Made by a program: the position numbers and the translations under genes. The notes under the pieces are model-generated. The model saw only the letters and a list, made by a program, of their open reading frames with translations. It ran no database searches and had not been told where the DNA came from. Source: Escherichia phage vB_EcoM_JQD51. Taken from it: DNA of 64,000 bases. The DNA lies in sequence record PV204681; one strand, 5' to 3'. This document shows positions 57,308 through 63,855 of the stretch, one piece after another; the stretch's first letter is position 1, and each line of letters opens with the position of its first letter.

Positions 57308-57856
57308 TTAACGAGCCCATTTGATAATTTCTGTAATCAAATAATTACGTTCGCTTGCATTAAATCCTATAACTTTGTTAGCACCGTCATGATTAAGTAA
57401 TTGATACGTTTGGATTTTGTTATGAATTGCAAACTCTTCAAAATATGAAATGACTGTATTAAAACCGAATGAAGACAAAGTAATAAGATCGTCTTCAAAA
57501 CTTTCAGTCATTTCGTTACGTGTTAAAATAATTGTGAACACATCATGGTTTTGGCAAAGACGAACATAATCCTGTTCATAAACGTCAAGAACCGAGTCCG
57601 CATCTTGTCGAATACGTCCATAAACCCAGTTACTAATATATCCACGGTCTAACAGATAAATCTTAGTAGGGTCTAAATAATTCAACATCGTTTCGAAACA
57701 GCCAACTTCATTTCGAGACTTAACATCGAAACGTCCATCAACTGTTCGTTTAGGGAAATCAATCTTTACATATCTTTCACTAATTTCCATTATGTCATTA
57801 ATGAAAGTTGTTTTACCAGCATTATCCGGGCCATCTACTAAAATAATTTTAGCCAT
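57308..57856 (-). CDS. P-loop kinase, thymidylate-kinase-like
   Basis: 182 aa; Walker A GPDNAGKTT; DR(G/Y) motif LLDRGYISNWVYG as in TMPK/dNMP kinases; coupled to upstream gene; sits in the T4 beta-gt slot. Confidence 0.6.
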   Translation of the reverse strand: MAKIILVDGPDNAGKTTFINDIMEISERYVKIDFPKRTVDGRFDVKSRNEVGCFETMLNYLDPTKIYLLDRGYISNWVYGRIRQDADSVLDVYEQDYVRLCQNHDVFTIILTRNEMTESFEDDLITLSSFGFNTVISYFEEFAIHNKIQTYQLLNHDGANKVIGFNASERNYLITEIIKWAR

Positions 57857-57857
57857 T

Positions 57858-58757
57858 TTATTCCTCGATTACGACATCTTCATATTTAGGTATATTATAC
57901 GGCGAAGAAATTAAAGCATTAAAGTAGATGAACTCACCAAGACCTGGATGGAATACTTCTTCAGGATTTTCGAAATATTGAATCTTCGGACGTCCTTTAA
58001 GAATTTGATAGTACTCAGTTTTAGTTGGTTTAAAAATTCGAATCAGCGCTTCTTCAGGATACTTATTTCTGTCGAAGCTATTATTTGGATCGGTTATATA
58101 AAGCGGTTGGCCTAATTGAATTGCACATTCAACCACTTGTTCAAAACGATAGCACGGGTCACTAATTCGAAATGGATGAAAAATACCATCTAGATGAATA
58201 GGAGCCAAATCACCTACAAGACGCTGCATGATGGAAGGACGTATAACTTTCTGGGTTACGATAATCTTATTACCATCGGCACCAGCGTTAACCAGCACTT
58301 CCTTTTGACGTTTATTCAACACAGTAGTTTGAAGTGAACGATTAACCGACAACATATCGGTTTTTAAGAATTCGTCAATATAAAAACGTGGTTTATTAGG
58401 GTCTGCAGTGATATTGAAATTGAATTCCACATCAAAAGCGCCGTCATATCCAGTGATATCTGTGATTAGAAAATCACAATCATAATAATCAATTAATGAA
58501 TCAACCACAAATTCATTTTCAGACCAGAAATATTTACGAGTGTTATATGCGTTATCTTTATACCATAATGGAACAAACTTAAATTCTGGGAAAAGACGTT
58601 CACATTCTTTAATATCAGATGCATTACGTGGATATGTAATCACATCACCCGGATTAGCACGGTGCAAATGAAGTTGGAAGTTGCCATCCTTAAGGATAGC
58701 ATACTGTCCAGTTTCATAAGACCGCATACTCAAGATAGGTACGCGGAAAATAGCCAT
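57858..58757 (-). CDS. hypothetical protein (299 aa), candidate DNA-modification enzyme
   Basis: ORF track; TAATG coupling with gene 42; contains a DCD (DxD-like) motif; family not recognised. Confidence 0.5.
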   Translation of the reverse strand: MAIFRVPILSMRSYETGQYAILKDGNFQLHLHRANPGDVITYPRNASDIKECERLFPEFKFVPLWYKDNAYNTRKYFWSENEFVVDSLIDYYDCDFLITDITGYDGAFDVEFNFNITADPNKPRFYIDEFLKTDMLSVNRSLQTTVLNKRQKEVLVNAGADGNKIIVTQKVIRPSIMQRLVGDLAPIHLDGIFHPFRISDPCYRFEQVVECAIQLGQPLYITDPNNSFDRNKYPEEALIRIFKPTKTEYYQILKGRPKIQYFENPEEVFHPGLGEFIYFNALISSPYNIPKYEDVVIEE

Positions 58758-59473
58758 TAGTCAAGGAATCCTTTAACATAATCAAAATCACGTTCAAACA
58801 CATGGGCACTTACCATGGTATGAGTATAATCACCAACTTCTACACCACATTCGTTAGCGATATAATGAAGTAATTTTCCTTGGAGATAAAAATCCAACTG
58901 CATAACAACAGCACAGTTCTGAGAACGCATATGACAGTGGGTATAAAGCTTACCATCACGAATATAATAAGTCACTGAGTCAGTACATGGATATTCAAGC
59001 GTTTCGTCTGAATCAAGCAAAGCCTGATCAGAACTTTCTAGAATTTGGAACACAACTCTTCGAGAGTTAGGCTTCTCTTTAAGTTCTTTTAGAAGAGCTG
59101 GTAATTGGGCCACAATGCGAGGACCATAGAAAGTGTTGAAGTTCGCCGGCAAAACATCTGATTTTGGTTTAGAAATAAATTTAGCGACATTAGGATATGC
59201 CTTAAACGCTTCTTCTGCGTTGGTACCACCAGAAATCATAAACTTCCAGAAGTCTTCGGCATATTCATAAGAGATGCGGTTAATACGTGGGTCAGTCATT
59301 TTGAATGATGACGGAGTGTCAACAACTACTGTCATAGACCCAATTTCATTACAACGTCCAATACGAGAATCAGTTACGAATTCCGGGTTTTCTAAAATTT
59401 CACGATTGACTGCTTTAAATGCGGTTTGAAAATCTGCGGCTTTGATATATTTCATTGTGTTATGTTTTCCCAT
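58757..59473 (-). CDS. 42: dCMP hydroxymethylase (thymidylate synthase family)
   Basis: 238 aa; catalytic-Cys motif YPCTDSVTYYIRD aligns with T4 gp42 FMCTNTVQYLIRD; Asp in the specificity position (QLD, cf. T4 RND) implies cytosine substrate; GAGGT SD. Confidence 0.8.
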   Translation of the reverse strand: MGKHNTMKYIKAADFQTAFKAVNREILENPEFVTDSRIGRCNEIGSMTVVVDTPSSFKMTDPRINRISYEYAEDFWKFMISGGTNAEEAFKAYPNVAKFISKPKSDVLPANFNTFYGPRIVAQLPALLKELKEKPNSRRVVFQILESSDQALLDSDETLEYPCTDSVTYYIRDGKLYTHCHMRSQNCAVVMQLDFYLQGKLLHYIANECGVEVGDYTHTMVSAHVFERDFDYVKGFLD

Positions 59474-59654
59474 GTTTACCTCAATACAATTTATTATATA
59501 CTCAATTCGTAAAGCTTATTTGAATTTCTTGACAATGTTGATATAACGTAAAGCTTCAGCATCGATACTTCCAAGAACACTATGAAGAAATGCATCAGCG
59601 TAGTATTCCAATTAAACAGGTTCTTTAATCACTTTAGCCGCTTTAGTTTCAAAC

Positions 59655-59675
59655 AGGCCCATCAGGGCCTTTTTA
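59655..59675 (+). other. hairpin plus T-run on plus strand between gene 42 and the U32 gene
   Basis: aggccc-atca-gggcct then tttt. Confidence 0.3.
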
Positions 59676-59751
59676 AGAATTTGTTCGATGCTGTTAATTT
59701 TCATAGTCAAAATCTCTTCGTTAAGTTGGTGGTTAAAAGTTTTTCTAGAAA

Positions 59752-60912
59752 TCATTCTGGGTACCTCAAAGCGTCGTCAGAGTTAGTTATATCAATAATA
59801 GATATAGAATTTTCTGATAACCCATTTTTAGATAACTGACGTTTATAATATCTTTCACAATATGTACACGTCGTCCCGCAGATTTCATTAGCACAATCGA
59901 AATCTGGATGTTTGAACCACCTTTTTTCTAAAAAGCCATCTAACAAAGAGGTTTCAATATTTACCGTATGTGAAAACTCGGTCTCATTTTCAAGAGTGAA
60001 AATGGTCTCTAAAGGCTTCCACAATTCCAACAAATTACCTTCAAACTTTTCAGAAGCATAAGCTTCAAGAACTTTCAAAATGTAGTCTGTGCTACCTGTA
60101 CGTCCTGAAACTTTGAATTGAGTGATACCAATATCATTATAAAGTTTCAAATCTTGAGGACGAACAAAACGAGTTCTCAACCAGTTAAATGGGTCTGTAT
60201 CACGAGCTTTAATACAGTGCTGCATTGGATACCCATTTAAGGATTTGGCATCATCTACTGTAACATCGGTGCTATGGAAAATATAGCAAGAGTCACGATA
60301 ACTACAATGTGTTGTATACCCTTTACCAGCATTAGAACAGAACTCATTTACAAGAACTTCAAATATTATATTGTTCTTATTACAAAACTCTGCTGCACGC
60401 TTCAGGAAAGAAACTGAACGGTTCTTATGAATTCCGCAGCAGACCTTTTTGATATTATATTGGTCATGCAAGTATTTGATTTGAGTTACAGCATCGACAT
60501 GTAGAATTGTTGAAACTTCAATCTCAATGTCTTTATTGACTTCACGAACAATTTCCATAACAACAGGGTTAGCGATAGTAATACGCCATACGCCTATTGA
60601 CCAAAGATACTGAACATAATCCTGAATAGCTTTCTTCTTCCACTCAACTAGTTCTCTTTTTGAACCAGGATTTATCGTGTTGAGTGTATAGTTAAAGCAA
60701 ATACCTAATTCGTTACAACGTTTAACGTAATCTTCTAACATCTTTTTGTCAACGTCAGGAAGCCTAAAATCAGGTCTGGCTGCTACAAAAGCCATTTCTC
60801 TGGTAGAGCCGTATACTTCGTTTATCAAGCTATTAGGATAAGTTTTATTGAGCTCTACGATTTTATCAAGAAGAGCTAAATCAAAATTCGTTCCGATTTT
60901 AAAGGTATTCAT
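59752..60912 (-). CDS. peptidase U32 family protein (prephenate-dependent hydroxylase family)
   Basis: 386 aa; blocks ANPVVMEIVRE, EIEVSTILHV, Cys-rich EVLVNEFCSNAGKGYTTHCSYRDSC and FKVSGRTGS align with remembered U32 proteins (YegQ/RlhA: DPGLIMLVRE, EIFVHGALCMAYSGRC, LKIEGRTKS). Confidence 0.6.
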   Translation of the reverse strand: MNTFKIGTNFDLALLDKIVELNKTYPNSLINEVYGSTREMAFVAARPDFRLPDVDKKMLEDYVKRCNELGICFNYTLNTINPGSKRELVEWKKKAIQDYVQYLWSIGVWRITIANPVVMEIVREVNKDIEIEVSTILHVDAVTQIKYLHDQYNIKKVCCGIHKNRSVSFLKRAAEFCNKNNIIFEVLVNEFCSNAGKGYTTHCSYRDSCYIFHSTDVTVDDAKSLNGYPMQHCIKARDTDPFNWLRTRFVRPQDLKLYNDIGITQFKVSGRTGSTDYILKVLEAYASEKFEGNLLELWKPLETIFTLENETEFSHTVNIETSLLDGFLEKRWFKHPDFDCANEICGTTCTYCERYYKRQLSKNGLSENSISIIDITNSDDALRYPE

Positions 60913-60966: not shown

Positions 60967-61368
60967 TTATAGATTCGGTTTATATGATTTAAATGTTTCG
61001 AATTCGCCTTTATTCATAAGAGCTTTGAATTCGTCAGGACGCATAGCTTTGTCGTCGATAATCCAATCATATACTGGTTTATGTGTTAGCAAATTATGGT
61101 ACTTCAATCCAATGTTTGCCAAGTTCTGAATCAGACTTGGGAGAATGTCAATTGCTATACGACCAGGACCGACTGACTTCATACCGCGAGCAGTGTAAAG
61201 CGTTATTGTATGCCCTGCATCATATAGGGCATTAATGGCAGACACCATTTCGACGTCTGGTTTGAAGTTCACGTAATCACGATTGTTATTCCATTCCGTG
61301 ATGCAATCATCGACATCAAAACAAAGATTAAGCATGTTTTTTACACGGTGCATTAGATTCGTTCCCAT
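60967..61368 (-). CDS. HAD-superfamily phosphatase (small)
   Basis: 133 aa; motif I FDVDDCIT (DxDx[T/V]), motif II LYTARG, motif III/IV K...IIDDKA; start may be the ATG at 61353 (TAATG overlap). Confidence 0.6.
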   Translation of the reverse strand: MGTNLMHRVKNMLNLCFDVDDCITEWNNNRDYVNFKPDVEMVSAINALYDAGHTITLYTARGMKSVGPGRIAIDILPSLIQNLANIGLKYHNLLTHKPVYDWIIDDKAMRPDEFKALMNKGEFETFKSYKPNL

Positions 61369-63038
61369 TGATGAGTGATATCGCCACCGATTGGACGATA
61401 AGAAACACCAGTTTCTTTATCAGTTAGTACCCATTTACCAGGATTTTTTGTAATCAGAGTAGCCGTTACAGGTTCTGCTACATCATAACTAATAGAGCCG
61501 TCTTGAAGTACACGGCCCATATTACGTAATTGCTTAGTCAGAAGTTCCATACCTTTATAATATGCGGCTACCGCTTTAAGTGGATTATTCTTGAAATAAC
61601 CACCTAATGCAATCCAGATAATTGCTACAGCCAAATGATGATACTCATTAAACGAACTCATCTTTCCATATTTGTAAACTAATGGATTGATGTTAATAGT
61701 CACATTACAAGTTGTTTCATCAATAGTAAACTGTCCCCAGGTCGGATTAGCATTGAATTCATCATAACCTGAAACAGCATAAAGCACTTTAGCTTCATCA
61801 TACAATTTTGGCCCGTAAATCTTGGTTTCACCAAAATATCCACGAGGGTCGATAAACTTGACTTCACCATTATCAGTAATCATAGTATTACTGAAGTTTG
61901 GGTCACCATGAATAACAGAGTACTGTCCCTGAGAACGGTTATGATAACGAATAAGGTGTTCTAAAGCTTGTTTCAGCATTGGCTTCAGACGCCCAATCTT
62001 AGTGTAGTTCACATGTGTGATTTTACCAAATGAATCAATCAATGGTTGAATACTTTCACAACGATCAATAACTTTAGTATAGAATTCTTTAGTGAAATCA
62101 CGACGAACAGTTTCAGGACTTACAAAATAAGTGTCTGTGCTGAATTTCAGTGCATCTAAAATTGCATCAACAATTTGTGGACGAGCAAGACTTGATTTGG
62201 ATTTAATATATTCAAATGCCGGCTTACCTTTAATGCGTTCCATTTCAAAGTTATTTTCATTAACAGAAACTAGCTGAGGAACTGAATCTGATTTCACTTT
62301 AAGATACCATGAAATCTCATCTTTCTGAAGAGCTCGGCCCTGTTCGGTTAATGCGAATTTAGTTACAGTTTCTTCACCAATTTCAACTGCATTAAAACTA
62401 CGATTAAGTTCACGAACTTCATGAGCTTTTTCAAGTTTAGGCATATCACCTAAATCAATTAGATTCATAAGCTCTGATTTATTGAATGCGCTGCCGTAAA
62501 GGAATTCTACGAAATCACGTCCTTTGCAGTATTCATGAATTTCCTCATCAGTAGAACCCATATAGAATTCCCAGTCTTTGAACTGATAAATTCCTACAAC
62601 ATTACCACCTGTTGAACCTACGTTAGTGATATTTTCACCGTCGAAATTATATCGACATTCGTCGCCCTTAACATAGATTGCGTTAACATTCCAAGACCAT
62701 GAACCAAAATCAGGAATAATATCACACCAGTTAACAATTACATTATGGCCGTCTAAATCTTTGTGCAATTTAGCAAGAGCATAAGCAGAACCATATGCTT
62801 CATCAACTGTACGAATAGTCACATTGAACCCTTCTTGCTCACAATAAGCTCGAACGGTTTCAGCAAATTTTGAATGAACTACTACAATAATTTCATCTGC
62901 GCCAAGGTCAGAATAAATTGTATACAAATTGCTCAGAATAGTGTCTTGTTTATAGTTAACAAGCACCTTAGGAATATGATGTGTTATTGGATACAAACGA
63001 GTTGCCAGTCCAGCACCGAGAATAACAGCTTTTTTCAT
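61353..63038 (-). CDS. bifunctional sugar-1-phosphate nucleotidyltransferase / APH-like anomeric sugar kinase
   Basis: 561 aa; N-terminal KKAVILGAGLATRLYPITHHIPKVLV (RmlA/GalU-type G-x-G-T-R-L-x-P-x-T); C-terminal HGDPNFSN...KFIDPRGYFG (HxDxxxxN catalytic loop and D of Mg site as in ChoK/APH/AmgK); GAGGACC SD. Confidence 0.8.
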   Translation of the reverse strand: MKKAVILGAGLATRLYPITHHIPKVLVNYKQDTILSNLYTIYSDLGADEIIVVVHSKFAETVRAYCEQEGFNVTIRTVDEAYGSAYALAKLHKDLDGHNVIVNWCDIIPDFGSWSWNVNAIYVKGDECRYNFDGENITNVGSTGGNVVGIYQFKDWEFYMGSTDEEIHEYCKGRDFVEFLYGSAFNKSELMNLIDLGDMPKLEKAHEVRELNRSFNAVEIGEETVTKFALTEQGRALQKDEISWYLKVKSDSVPQLVSVNENNFEMERIKGKPAFEYIKSKSSLARPQIVDAILDALKFSTDTYFVSPETVRRDFTKEFYTKVIDRCESIQPLIDSFGKITHVNYTKIGRLKPMLKQALEHLIRYHNRSQGQYSVIHGDPNFSNTMITDNGEVKFIDPRGYFGETKIYGPKLYDEAKVLYAVSGYDEFNANPTWGQFTIDETTCNVTININPLVYKYGKMSSFNEYHHLAVAIIWIALGGYFKNNPLKAVAAYYKGMELLTKQLRNMGRVLQDGSISYDVAEPVTATLITKNPGKWVLTDKETGVSYRPIGGDITHQWERI

Positions 63039-63079
63039 GTTGTGGTCCTCATTGGTAAGTAGGAGTATTGTACACTATT

Positions 63080-63223
63080 CTAGTTAAAGCATTCATACTT
63101 TGCTTGTAGTCCAATCATAATCCATCCAATTACAAGTGTTGGAATCATTACTGGAGCCGTTAAGCTCCAGTAGATAGTCATGACAAGCATCAATAGTAAA
63201 AGTCCTATTGTTATTGCTTTCAT
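63080..63223 (-). CDS. small hydrophobic peptide (47 aa)
   Basis: Hand-read: MKAITIGLLLLMLVMTIYWSLTAPVMIPTLVIGWIMIGLQAKYECFN; ATGA overlap with the isomerase stop. Confidence 0.3.
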   Translation of the reverse strand: MKAITIGLLLLMLVMTIYWSLTAPVMIPTLVIGWIMIGLQAKYECFN

Positions 63224-63855
63224 TGTTCGCCTCGTAACATGGCACCTAGTGCGCCGCCAGGGTGGAACTTAAGGAAGTCATTAGAGGTAAATCCACGCTC
63301 AGACGAAAGGTTGATAGCAAACGTATCGATAAGCGCTAACAACAATGTAGTGGACATAGTCGGAGCCAGAGAATTCTCATCAACCTCTACTGCGATGCCT
63401 GTACAGAAAGAGTAATCAAAAAGGGCTTCATTTTCTTGTGGAATGTCTGGGTTACAATGCAACAGAATCTGTTTGACGTTCGGACGAATCATTTTAAGAT
63501 GCTTAGCCACGCCTATCATTTCTTCAGTTTTACCAGAACGACTAATATGAATCAACACATCATTAGGCGCAATGAATCCTGCATCACCGTGAGAATAATG
63601 CCCAGTGTTCAAGTACATACTCGGGATACCGAGTGAAGCAAATGTCTCAGAAGCTTTAGTTGCAATATTAGCATTCTTACCAACACCTGTAATAATTACT
63701 CGGCTTTCATAATTACTAAGTCCCGGACGTCGAAGAGTTTCTAGAATAGCATTATAACGAGCAGGGTTTTGACTAATTACTTTGGCCATATCGGCCAAAG
63801 AAGAAGATTGTTTTATGATTGCGTTAATAGCGATAGTAATAGGAGTAGTTTTCAT
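63220..63855 (-). CDS. SIS-domain sugar-phosphate isomerase, KdsD/KpsF-type arabinose-5-phosphate isomerase (no CBS domains)
   Basis: 211 aa; TGVGKNANIATKASETFASLGIPSMYLNTGHYSHGDAGFIAPNDVLIHISRSGKTEE aligns with the KdsD SIS core (GxGKSGxIGxKxAATFASTG...HGDLG...SxSGE). Confidence 0.8.
   Translation of the reverse strand: MKTTPITIAINAIIKQSSSLADMAKVISQNPARYNAILETLRRPGLSNYESRVIITGVGKNANIATKASETFASLGIPSMYLNTGHYSHGDAGFIAPNDVLIHISRSGKTEEMIGVAKHLKMIRPNVKQILLHCNPDIPQENEALFDYSFCTGIAVEVDENSLAPTMSTTLLLALIDTFAINLSSERGFTSNDFLKFHPGGALGAMLRGEQ

Follow-up and report, generated by a model that had tools for sequence, protein, structure and literature searches.

A U32-family protein linked to chorismate mutase is a candidate oxygen-independent pyrimidine hydroxylase in the 5-hydroxycytosine cluster of RB69-like phages

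A 64,000-nucleotide stretch of Escherichia phage vB_EcoM_JQD51 (record PV204681), here called the window, encodes at positions 59752-60912 of its minus strand a 386-amino-acid protein of the U32 family. On balance we favour the reading that this protein is a prephenate-dependent, O2-independent hydroxylase of pyrimidine C5, which would back up or replace the O2-dependent 5-hydroxy-dCMP synthase encoded beside it. The evidence consists of the family membership and putative metal-ligand residues of the protein, purifying selection on its gene, linkage to chorismate mutase (CM) across independent lineages, linkage to glycosyltransferase, kinase and deoxynucleotide genes, and the phyletic pattern; from these we infer that the enzyme uses prephenate, which substrate it hydroxylates and that its role is anaerobic. 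The parts of this reading differ in strength: C5 hydroxylation of cytosine or another pyrimidine in the service of DNA modification is a little more probable than the reading as a whole, and for a specifically anaerobic back-up role we see the case for and against as evenly balanced. The gene and its family assignment are already present in databases. New here are the U32-CM module, its recurrence with fusions of DAHP synthase and CM (DAHPS-CM), and the apparent substitution of U32 for the thymidylate synthase (TS)-type hydroxylase beside the same transferase in phages of anaerobes.

The 7-kb region around the gene is 97.8% identical to Escherichia phage RB69, which makes the window an RB69-like Mosigvirus, and 98.8% identical to phage S143_2. 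The gene is the homolog of RB69 ORF050c (RB69p050), whose database label is 'peptidase'. The original prediction had placed it at its exact coordinates and had assigned the protein to the U32 family from its conserved blocks; the profile searches bear this out. Pfam PF01136 (Peptidase_U32) matches residues 94-286 with 42.4 bits (E = 6.3e-11), above its gathering cut-off of 22.4 bits, and is the sole Pfam domain matched, and PHROG 5757 matches the protein end to end with 884 bits. An AlphaFold2 model made with 34 homologs as input (pLDDT 89.9, pTM 0.89) finds as its top PDB match in Foldseek 5D88, the only solved U32 structure (E = 1e-7, target-normalised TM 0.73); its remaining PDB matches are generic TIM barrels. 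A single-sequence search of PDB sequences gave no match, and the sole match of a profile search, BIM1, was judged spurious. With an alignment to E. coli RlhA at 82% probability (see below), membership of the U32 family is all but certain.

The gene is clearly functional and under strong purifying selection, since the ratio of nonsynonymous to synonymous substitution rates (dN/dS) between the window and RB69 is ~0.03. The amino-acid divergence of U32 between the window and nine other genera is 0.11-0.16, compared with 0.12-0.25 for the TS homolog, and U32 is the lower of the two every time. The start of the window gene is a predicted one, the first start codon after the upstream stop; the annotated start of RB69p050 lies 9 nt (three codons) further upstream (L001 5753-6922 versus 59752-60912). 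The subfamily as a whole comprises 113 clusters (50% identity) at E <= 1e-30 and 712 at E <= 1e-10.

Ten cysteines are invariant among 34 relatives of the window U32. In a wider set of 123 full-length distant representatives (27-50% identity), C203 and C233 are each kept in all 123 and C192 in 122, and the C-terminal motif C340-x4-C345-x3-C349-x2-C352 (CX4CX3CX2C) is found in 113-115. At residue 209, 74 of the representatives have Cys and 48 have His, a split which may mark two functional subgroups. The K-x-x-G-R motif of the U32 domain reads FKVSGR in the phage protein, aligns with FKIEGR of RlhA and has K267 and R271 invariant (123/123). Among the four E. coli paralogs, HHalign matches the family profile best to RlhA (82% probability over 203 columns), with 8.5% for TrhP (N-terminal half only), 4.9% for UbiU and 0.5% for UbiV, and it pairs phage E190/C203/C209 with RlhA E161/C169/C176. 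Mutagenesis of RlhA has shown that C169 and C176 are essential and E161 nearly so, and that cysteines of the C-terminal region are essential too (Kimura et al., PMC5727448). An alternative MAFFT pairing of C192 with the first canonical Cys of the E. coli paralogs was set aside for the HHalign pairing of C203 with C169 because the latter preserves the motif C-x5/6-C-Y-I-x-H.

The conservation of Cys ligands that the family call leads one to expect is thus borne out in part. The C203/C209 pair and E190 are present, with a spacing (C203-x5-C209) one residue under the canonical CX6C, but no Cys occupies the canonical site of the third and fourth ligands (CX3-4C, ~15 residues downstream). Instead the invariant C192 and C233 flank the pair, and C233 aligns near C232 of UbiU, whose ligands there are C193/C232. 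The phage protein probably holds a [4Fe-4S] cluster. Pfam finds neither the DUF3656 domain nor the ~650-residue length of the RlhA subfamily in the 386-residue protein; the TrhP subfamily (~450 residues with a C-terminal extension) does not fit either, given the HHalign value of 8.5% and no second Pfam domain, and the UbiU equivalog NF047963 of NCBIfam scores 19.4 bits against a cut-off of 440. Without the extra domains of RlhA or TrhP and with no Cys at the canonical sites of the third and fourth ligands, the phage protein therefore represents a distinct compact U32 subfamily and not an ortholog of a characterised member.

The link to prephenate comes from gene neighbourhoods. Annotations of 'chorismate mutase' near U32 or TS matches in the phage collection provided the lead, and representative loci were then inspected. 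A Pfam CM_2 domain is encoded 0-3 small open reading frames (ORFs) downstream of U32 in all nine non-Mosigvirus genera examined, scoring 32.8-46.3 bits against a gathering score of 27: Kanagawavirus Entb_45, Winklervirus LC53, Shewanella phage Thanatos-2, Mosugukvirus PM2, Tegunavirus TG1, Bragavirus phiP4-3, Gualtarvirus PSTRCR_121, Marfavirus PhiKpNIH-6 and Kagamiyamavirus EcS1. The phage CMs retain the residues R11, R28, K39, E52 and Q88 of EcCM, and a profile of the nine recovers the CM domain of E. coli PheA (E = 7e-6). In Thanatos-2 the U32 and CM genes stand after the kinase and not before the TS homolog, and the pair has therefore moved as a unit. The U32-less clusters of Dhakavirus Bp7, Acinetobacter phage Maestro and Pseudomonas phage PspYZU05 are also without CM, and CM without U32 was never seen among the T4-like clusters examined. 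This association is significant because prephenate is the oxygen donor in UbiU/V-dependent hydroxylation, as found by 18O labelling (PMC10990095), and is genetically required for RlhA and TrhP (PMC5727448, PMC6599085). We consider it quite probable that the phage U32 depends on prephenate as well.

CM can be lost while U32 stays, as in the RB69 group and in L024, a Klebsiella-phage-like contig whose U32 is 89% identical and whose CM gene is absent; U32 is presumably kept after such a loss because host PheA and TyrA make prephenate. RB69 ORF049c (79 amino acids) and its window equivalent have no Pfam CM_2 match, and the nine-CM profile gives E > 1. In the window this small ORF (59516-59755) occupies the place of CM in other genera, its start overlapping the U32 stop (ATGA). 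That it might be a decayed CM is suggested by synteny, but there is no significant similarity and we do not claim it. The same ORF has a TAA at 59612-59614 in place of the CAA (Gln) codon of RB69 and of the IMG/VR contig L023, and it carries four amino-acid changes in 79 codons next to an almost unchanged U32, which looks like relaxed constraint. In L024 (11150-11190), a hairpin, AAAGAGGCTTTGGCCTCTTTT, lies 3' of the U32 stop and is followed by a TATAAT box just before the TS homolog.

The genes around U32 in the window, all on the minus strand, are those of a DNA-glycosylation cluster:

57308-57856, minus strand: thymidylate-kinase-like nucleotide kinase, homolog of RB69 gp45 (PHROG 761; PMC13326640 Table 1)
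57858-58757, minus strand: predicted first DNA arabinosyltransferase 'GT1', homolog of RB69 gp46:47; 299 amino acids, a single ORF with no Pfam match (PHROG 3891; PMC13326640)
58757-59473, minus strand: TS homolog, 5-hydroxy-dCMP synthase, homolog of RB69 gp48 (Pfam Thymidylat_synt; residues E143/N169/D177)
59516-59755, minus strand: small ORF, equivalent of RB69 ORF049c; in-frame TAA at 59612-59614, no CM similarity
59752-60912, minus strand: U32-family putative Fe-S protein, homolog of RB69 ORF050c; ATG start, 386 amino acids (PF01136, AlphaFold2 fold, Cys ligands, dN/dS)
60967-61368, minus strand: HAD-type sugar phosphatase, RB69 gp51, AfhF-like (NCBIfam TIGR01689, PHROG 1238; PMC13326640)
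61353-63038, minus strand: bifunctional sugar kinase/nucleotidyltransferase, RB69 gp52:53, AfhE-like; 561 amino acids, a single ORF (Pfam NTP_transferase and kinase-like matches; PMC6024577, PMC13326640)
63220-63855, minus strand: arabinose-5-phosphate isomerase, homolog of RB69 gp55 (Pfam SIS; NCBIfam KpsF/GutQ, E = 2e-32; PHROG 5670)

U32 does lie between the TS homolog (58757-59473) and the sugar-nucleotide genes (60967-63855), as the original prediction said, but these are not genes of hydroxymethylcytosine synthesis. The neighbour taken for a dCMP hydroxymethylase is of the 5-hydroxy-dCMP synthase type: it is 98.7% identical to RB69 gp48 and has E143/N169/D177 together with the catalytic C146 (E. 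coli ThyA numbering), the published signature of these enzymes (D169N, N177D and L143E with catalytic C146; Lee et al. 2026, PMC13326640). Arabinose on RB69 DNA was shown by Thomas et al. 2018 (PMC6024577), and the modified base is arabinosylated 5-hydroxycytosine (5hoC) and not hydroxymethylcytosine (Lee et al. 2026, PMC13326640). RB69 gp48 makes 5-hydroxy-dCMP, binds its flavin loosely and takes the oxygen atom from O2, as 18O2 labelling shows (PMC13326640); for the homolog of phage HY126, Lee et al. cite He et al. 2026 for flavin in the crystal structure and for confirmation of the O2 source by in vitro reconstitution (PMC13326640). In the mono-arabinosylated phage Thanatos, a gp46:47-type protein is the only arabinosyltransferase (PMC13326640).

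This chemistry creates a dependence on oxygen. dCTPase genes are annotated in these T4-type clusters, and T4-type phages destroy dCTP, so the supply of C-nucleotides for replication depends on the modified precursor. With dCTP removed and gp48 in need of O2, a phage with gp48 only should stall under anoxia. RB69 also encodes the anaerobic ribonucleotide reductase NrdD/NrdG, and the lineage therefore appears to be adapted to anaerobic replication and already pairs an aerobic with an anaerobic enzyme for one step.

Further evidence comes from more distant relatives. U32 proteins 40-58% identical to that of the window are abundant in metagenomes, and a scan of IMG/VR yielded 15 T4-like loci and 21 distinct divergent ones. 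Where a polymerase gene was identified in the divergent loci it is of the DnaE type, and these loci therefore belong to a non-T4-like lineage; PF01136 matches all eight divergent relatives tested. The pairing with the prephenate pathway recurs in them. Specifically, a DAHPS-CM fusion is encoded two genes upstream of U32 in L048, L051 and L052; on the downstream side, L054 encodes CM as the very next gene and L037 a DAHP-synthase-like protein. Among genome loci from GTDB, CM stands beside U32 in 4 of 11 (L114, L117, L119 and L120), one of them, L117 from a Gastranaerophilaceae metagenome-assembled genome (MAG), with a DAHPS-CM fusion. As a genomic proxy, CM or a DAHPS-CM fusion beside U32 thus totals 9/9 T4-like genera, 5/21 divergent viral loci and 4/11 genome loci, and the divergent U32s so paired are 40-55% identical to the window protein. 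The named hosts of the GTDB matches are mostly obligate anaerobes (Erysipelotrichales, Oscillospiraceae, Romboutsia, Gastranaerophilaceae, Tannerella and Phocaeicola faecalis). The fusions have CM at the C-terminus, and that of L117, like the viral ones, is two genes upstream of U32; they lie at 8411-9430 in L048, 7302-8354 in L051, 8332-9384 in L052 and ~4922 in L117; those in viral contigs are virus-encoded shikimate-pathway enzymes.

The other neighbours in the 21 divergent loci were called with profiles built from RB69-cluster proteins. A gp46:47 homolog is present in 12 of them (E = 9e-07 to 8e-29) and in six of those 12 stands immediately upstream of U32, where the stop of one gene and the start of the next often overlap; two loci have a gp45-like kinase in front of the homolog. 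AfhE-like genes are found in nine loci (E down to 6e-66) and arabinose-5-phosphate isomerase in seven. The row in L040 (8434-14883), consisting of a gp45-like kinase, a gp46:47-like glycosyltransferase, U32, a GT47-like glycosyltransferase and a DnaE-type polymerase, may be a locus for DNA hypermodification in phages outside the T4 lineage. Other relatives of U32 directly follow dCMP deaminase, with thymidylate kinase and UDG in the vicinity. In eight divergent loci surveyed with Pfam, U32 occurs in all 8, thymidylate kinase in 6, dCMP deaminase in 3, dUTPase/DCD in several, GT47 in 2 and UDP-galactopyranose mutase in 1. This last gene (GLF, E = 7e-78) is in one of L040, L041, L043, L044, L045, L049, L053 and L059; in Rhizobium phage RL38J1, the galactofuranose for glycosyl-5hoC comes from an enzyme of this type.

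One further locus, L005 (8001-15428, the same as L006, from ENA/Logan), is apparently cellular and Clostridia-like, with a dockerin-bearing GH43 gene nearby. Its order is U32, an NT5C 5'-deoxynucleotidase, a PnuC-like transporter, a deoxynucleoside kinase, an AlaX-like gene, a radical SAM/SPASM gene, a faint U32-like gene and a nucleoside 2-deoxyribosyltransferase, and the cluster may encode a pathway for a modified deoxynucleoside.

A profile search found no gp48-type TS homolog within +-10 kb of any divergent U32. A broader TS profile, including E. coli ThyA and the distant RL38J1 enzyme, added a ThyA-like gene in L039 with residues L143/D169/N177, hence an ordinary thymidylate synthase, and a weak partial match at the cut contig end of L061. 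A collection-wide, motif-dependent scan for gp48-type proteins returned 48 contigs, with no divergent U32 contig among them.

In phage records, U32 was found in 221, all at >= 80% identity, and the hosts among those listed all belong to the Enterobacterales or Shewanella (Escherichia, Klebsiella, Shigella, Serratia, Proteus, Yersinia, Enterobacter, Providencia, Edwardsiella, Pectobacterium and Shewanella). The gp48-type enzyme is in 373 records, including those of 57 Acinetobacter and 20 Rhizobium phages. Counts of U32 and gp48-type records are equal for Klebsiella (26 and 26), Proteus (7 and 7) and Yersinia (6 and 6), and are 136 and 176 for Escherichia. Acinetobacter is not among the U32 host classes listed, the smallest of which has 3 records, and Acinetobacter-phage and Dhakavirus genomes that were matched in the IMG/VR scan for TS had no match in the scan for U32. 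Among the records listed, then, U32 is confined to phages of facultative anaerobes and is not in Acinetobacter or Rhizobium phages. All T4-like U32 loci examined (12 from GenBank and 15 from IMG/VR) also have the gp48-type 5hoC cluster.

Three classes result. T4-like phages of Enterobacterales and Shewanella have the TS-type enzyme and U32, with or without CM. Phages of Acinetobacter, Pseudomonas, Rhizobium and Agrobacterium, and the E. coli Dhakaviruses, have the TS-type enzyme only. DnaE-type phages and MAGs of anaerobes make up an apparent third class, with U32, with or without CM, and the same glycosyltransferase, kinase and sugar-nucleotide genes, in which no TS-type enzyme was found.

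From these observations we propose that a compact (~360-390 residues) Fe-S U32 enzyme would hydroxylate C5 of a cytosine deoxynucleotide. The substrate would most likely be dCMP, less likely dCTP or cytosine in DNA, and the reaction would be dCMP (or a related cytosine substrate) + prephenate + oxidant -> 5-hydroxy-dCMP + phenylpyruvate + CO2. This scheme is derived from the mechanism proposed for UbiU/V, and mirrors the pairs TrhP/TrhO and UbiUV/UbiIHF. In RB69-type phages, U32 would be the O2-independent twin of the adjacent flavin- and O2-dependent 5-hydroxy-dCMP synthase, and under anoxia in enteric hosts it would keep up 5hoC as the acceptor for arabinosylation. The prephenate would be made by the phage CM in most genera; the RB69 group, which would have lost the CM gene, would draw on host PheA/TyrA. 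It is also possible, at somewhat less than even odds, that U32, with CM where present, is a self-contained O2-independent hydroxylase of a free pyrimidine deoxynucleotide and, in the separate and widespread group of DnaE-type phages of anaerobes, the sole source of the 5-hydroxypyrimidine to which their gp46:47-like transferases would add sugar.

Several points weigh against this proposal. In air, gp48 and a dNMP kinase suffice for 5-hydroxy-dC in E. coli DNA (PMC13326640), so that U32 is not needed there. At least 150 phage genomes, among them ~40 E. coli phages such as Dhakavirus Bp7, have gp48 without U32, so that facultative anaerobes can be infected without U32 in some conditions at least. 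The distribution of U32 fits an anaerobic function, yet phage phylogeny confounds the correlation with host oxygen use. For the divergent phages, absence of a TS-type hydroxylase is likely over the +-10 kb and the motif-limited scan, and glycosylated DNA is a trait predicted from their genes. The role of gp46:47 as first arabinosyltransferase is itself a prediction of Lee et al. (PMC13326640), whose table also gives RB69p050 as a predicted 'sugar or heterocycle reductase' resembling 5D88. Within the protein, the third and fourth canonical U32 cysteines are absent from their usual sites. The closest characterised relatives act on RNA, and as of 2024 no in vitro reconstitution of a U32 hydroxylase had been achieved (PMC10990095). 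The literature searched, a scope outside which He et al. 2026 and Mahler et al. 2025 fall, contains no paper tying a phage U32, or prephenate, to DNA-base hydroxylation. Nor did it yield a characterised phage U32 enzyme, in agreement with the original prediction; Lee et al. (PMC13326640), which postdates both He et al. 2026 and Mahler et al. 2025, lists RB69p050 as a prediction only.

T4-like phages encode tRNAs of their own, and U32 might be an RNA hydroxylase like TrhP or RlhA, acting on U34 of phage or host tRNA or on an rRNA cytidine and so tuning translation during infection; the phage CM would then raise prephenate both for hydroxylation and for cmo5U synthesis via CmoA. We regard this as unlikely. 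It is true that every characterised nucleic-acid U32 enzyme acts on RNA and that RlhA is the best-aligning paralog (PMC5727448, PMC6599085), and a prephenate link is equally expected. However, the phage protein has neither the DUF3656 of RlhA nor the C-terminal domain of TrhP, all T4-like loci examined combine U32 with the 5hoC cluster, and in unrelated phages U32 overlaps a gp46:47-like glycosyltransferase or adjoins dCMP deaminase, deoxynucleoside kinase or NT5C genes. Such tracking of DNA-modification genes over three lineages is unexpected for a tRNA enzyme, and a tRNA role, one of the targets named in the original prediction, would not explain the constant embedding in DNA-modification loci. 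An action on the sugar side, with U32 modifying the arabinose donor or an intermediate or serving another redox step of glycosylation, is slightly less likely again. In its favour are the position of the gene between the phosphatase and the TS homolog within the arabinosylation cluster, the AfhE-like and isomerase genes of the divergent loci, and a phage record with the description 'putative enzyme involved in UDP-arabinose biosynthesis', with a similar entry in Table 1 of Lee et al. Nevertheless, DLP3 and Maestro make arabinosylated 5hoC without U32, Bp7 and PspYZU05 have the same synthesis genes and no U32, and the synthesis of UDP-arabinofuranose is accounted for by HY126 AfhE, AfhF and the isomerase (PMC13326640). 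Conversely, several U32 loci, among them L040, L044, L053, L059, L004 and L007, have no detectable arabinose-pathway genes, yet have glycosyltransferase, kinase or deaminase genes. The sugar-donor role suggested by the original prediction is thus disfavoured both by the UDP-arabinose genes of the DLP3, Maestro and Bp7-type clusters, which do without U32, and by the most constant partners of U32 elsewhere, which are CM, glycosyltransferase, kinase and deoxynucleotide-metabolism genes; it also gives no reason for the CM partner.

U32 might instead make an extra, distinct modification of DNA or nucleotides, such as a second hydroxyl or one on another base or position, minor or condition-specific, and we give this as little credence as a role on the sugar side. 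The chemistry of the family (aromatic or heterocycle hydroxylation) permits it, and the Cys/His split at position 209 and the diverse neighbours (dCMP deaminase, dUTPase) suggest that substrates may differ, for example 5-hydroxy-dUMP as a product. According to the abstract of Lee et al., though, DNA of aerobically grown RB69 contains only mono- and di-arabinosyl-5hoC in place of C (PMC13326640), and divergent phages with the same glycosyltransferase and kinase and no TS-type hydroxylase are a better fit to U32 as the primary supplier of the hydroxyl. Among the targets named in the original prediction, a nucleotide or DNA base has the best support, with hydroxylation at C5 of the pyrimidine; since the adjacent TS homolog already installs the C5 hydroxyl, the evidence favours an alternative, O2-independent route over an additional hydroxylation. 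A genuine peptidase or collagenase, as the historical family name and the labels 'peptidase' and 'collagenase-like protease' would have it, is highly improbable, as is a non-enzymatic remnant. The characterised E. coli members are tied to hydroxylation, the reported collagenase activity is without a known catalytic mechanism (PMC10990095, PMC5727448), the putative metal-ligand cysteines are invariant and the context is one of nucleotide and DNA modification; a remnant is excluded by the dN/dS of ~0.03.

Some observations on the window and its relatives concern the cluster in general. The intact single ORFs at 57858-58757 (299 amino acids) and 61353-63038 (561 amino acids), both on the minus strand, independently support the published view that the splits into ORF046/047 and ORF052/053 in the GenBank record of RB69 are sequencing errors. 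In Serratia phage LC53 the phosphatase and U32 genes are separated by an inserted gene for a putative endonuclease (L003 3854-4492), a further sign of a plastic region between gene 43 and uvsX. A scan for promoters and terminators over 57-64 kb was uninformative, with fewer sites than shuffled sequence gave.

The comparative evidence turns a vague 'peptidase' into a specific, testable hypothesis. If the O2-independent hydroxylase reading is right, it answers how phages with an O2-requiring 5-hydroxy-dCMP synthase and a dCTPase replicate in the largely oxygen-free gut. U32 would be the first enzyme of its family with a small soluble substrate and would catalyse the first prephenate-dependent step in DNA biosynthesis, so that such hydroxylation would reach DNA precursors as well as RNA and quinones. 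Work on the family would also gain what it lacks for in vitro reconstitution, a U32 enzyme that is small and soluble and takes a mononucleotide as its substrate. Hypermodification of DNA with 5-hydroxypyrimidines would have two independent enzymatic origins, split by oxygen availability. The model further predicts oxygen-dependent differences in host range or fitness among therapeutic T4-like phages, in which the module is carried by Mosigvirus, Marfavirus and Tegunavirus and not by Dhakavirus or Acinetobacter phages. Finally, it singles out a large family with no characterised member, the 113 clusters at E <= 1e-30, by which DNA hypermodification could be recognised in phages of anaerobes.

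Among the closest known systems is RlhA (YdcP), the 5-hydroxycytidine synthase for C2501 of E. coli 23S rRNA. It shares with the phage protein the U32 domain, the required residues E161/C169/C176 (phage E190/C203/C209) and an additional C-terminal Cys cluster, which in RlhA is essential, and it hydroxylates C5 of cytosine, the reaction proposed here, with a need for prephenate and Fe-S assembly. It differs in its length of 653 residues, its DUF3656 and its ribosomal precursor (pre-50S) substrate, whereas the phage protein has 386 residues, no DUF3656 and a context pointing to deoxynucleotides or DNA; the Cys spacing is CX6C in RlhA and CX5C in the phage protein, in which the putative further ligands C192 and C233 lie at non-canonical positions. 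Mk0906 of Methanopyrus (PDB 5D88), the best structural match, is 12% identical and consists of the barrel only (247 residues), with no bound cluster.

The proposed division of labour also has precedents. For 5-hydroxyuridine at tRNA position 34, the prephenate-dependent U32 protein TrhP and the unrelated O2-dependent TrhO make one 5-hydroxypyrimidine, and organisms living in both oxic and anoxic niches tend to retain both (PMC6599085); here, however, the substrate is a tRNA uridine, the O2-dependent partner is of the rhodanese family and not a TS homolog, and TrhP aligns with the phage family at 8.5% probability. UbiU/UbiV, with UbiT, likewise replace the flavin- and O2-dependent hydroxylases UbiI/H/F under anoxia (PMC10990095), but act on a lipid as a heterodimer that needs an accessory lipid-binding protein. 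The phages' own NrdDG and NrdAB are a precedent within the same genome for O2-dependent and anaerobic enzymes at one step of dNTP supply, with other chemistry and from other families. The 5-hydroxy-dCMP synthase itself (RB69 gp48, DLP3 gp80 and the HY126 homolog), encoded at a distance of one or two genes, yields what U32 is proposed to make and feeds the same arabinosyltransferases, but does so with a TS fold, a flavin cofactor and oxygen from O2.

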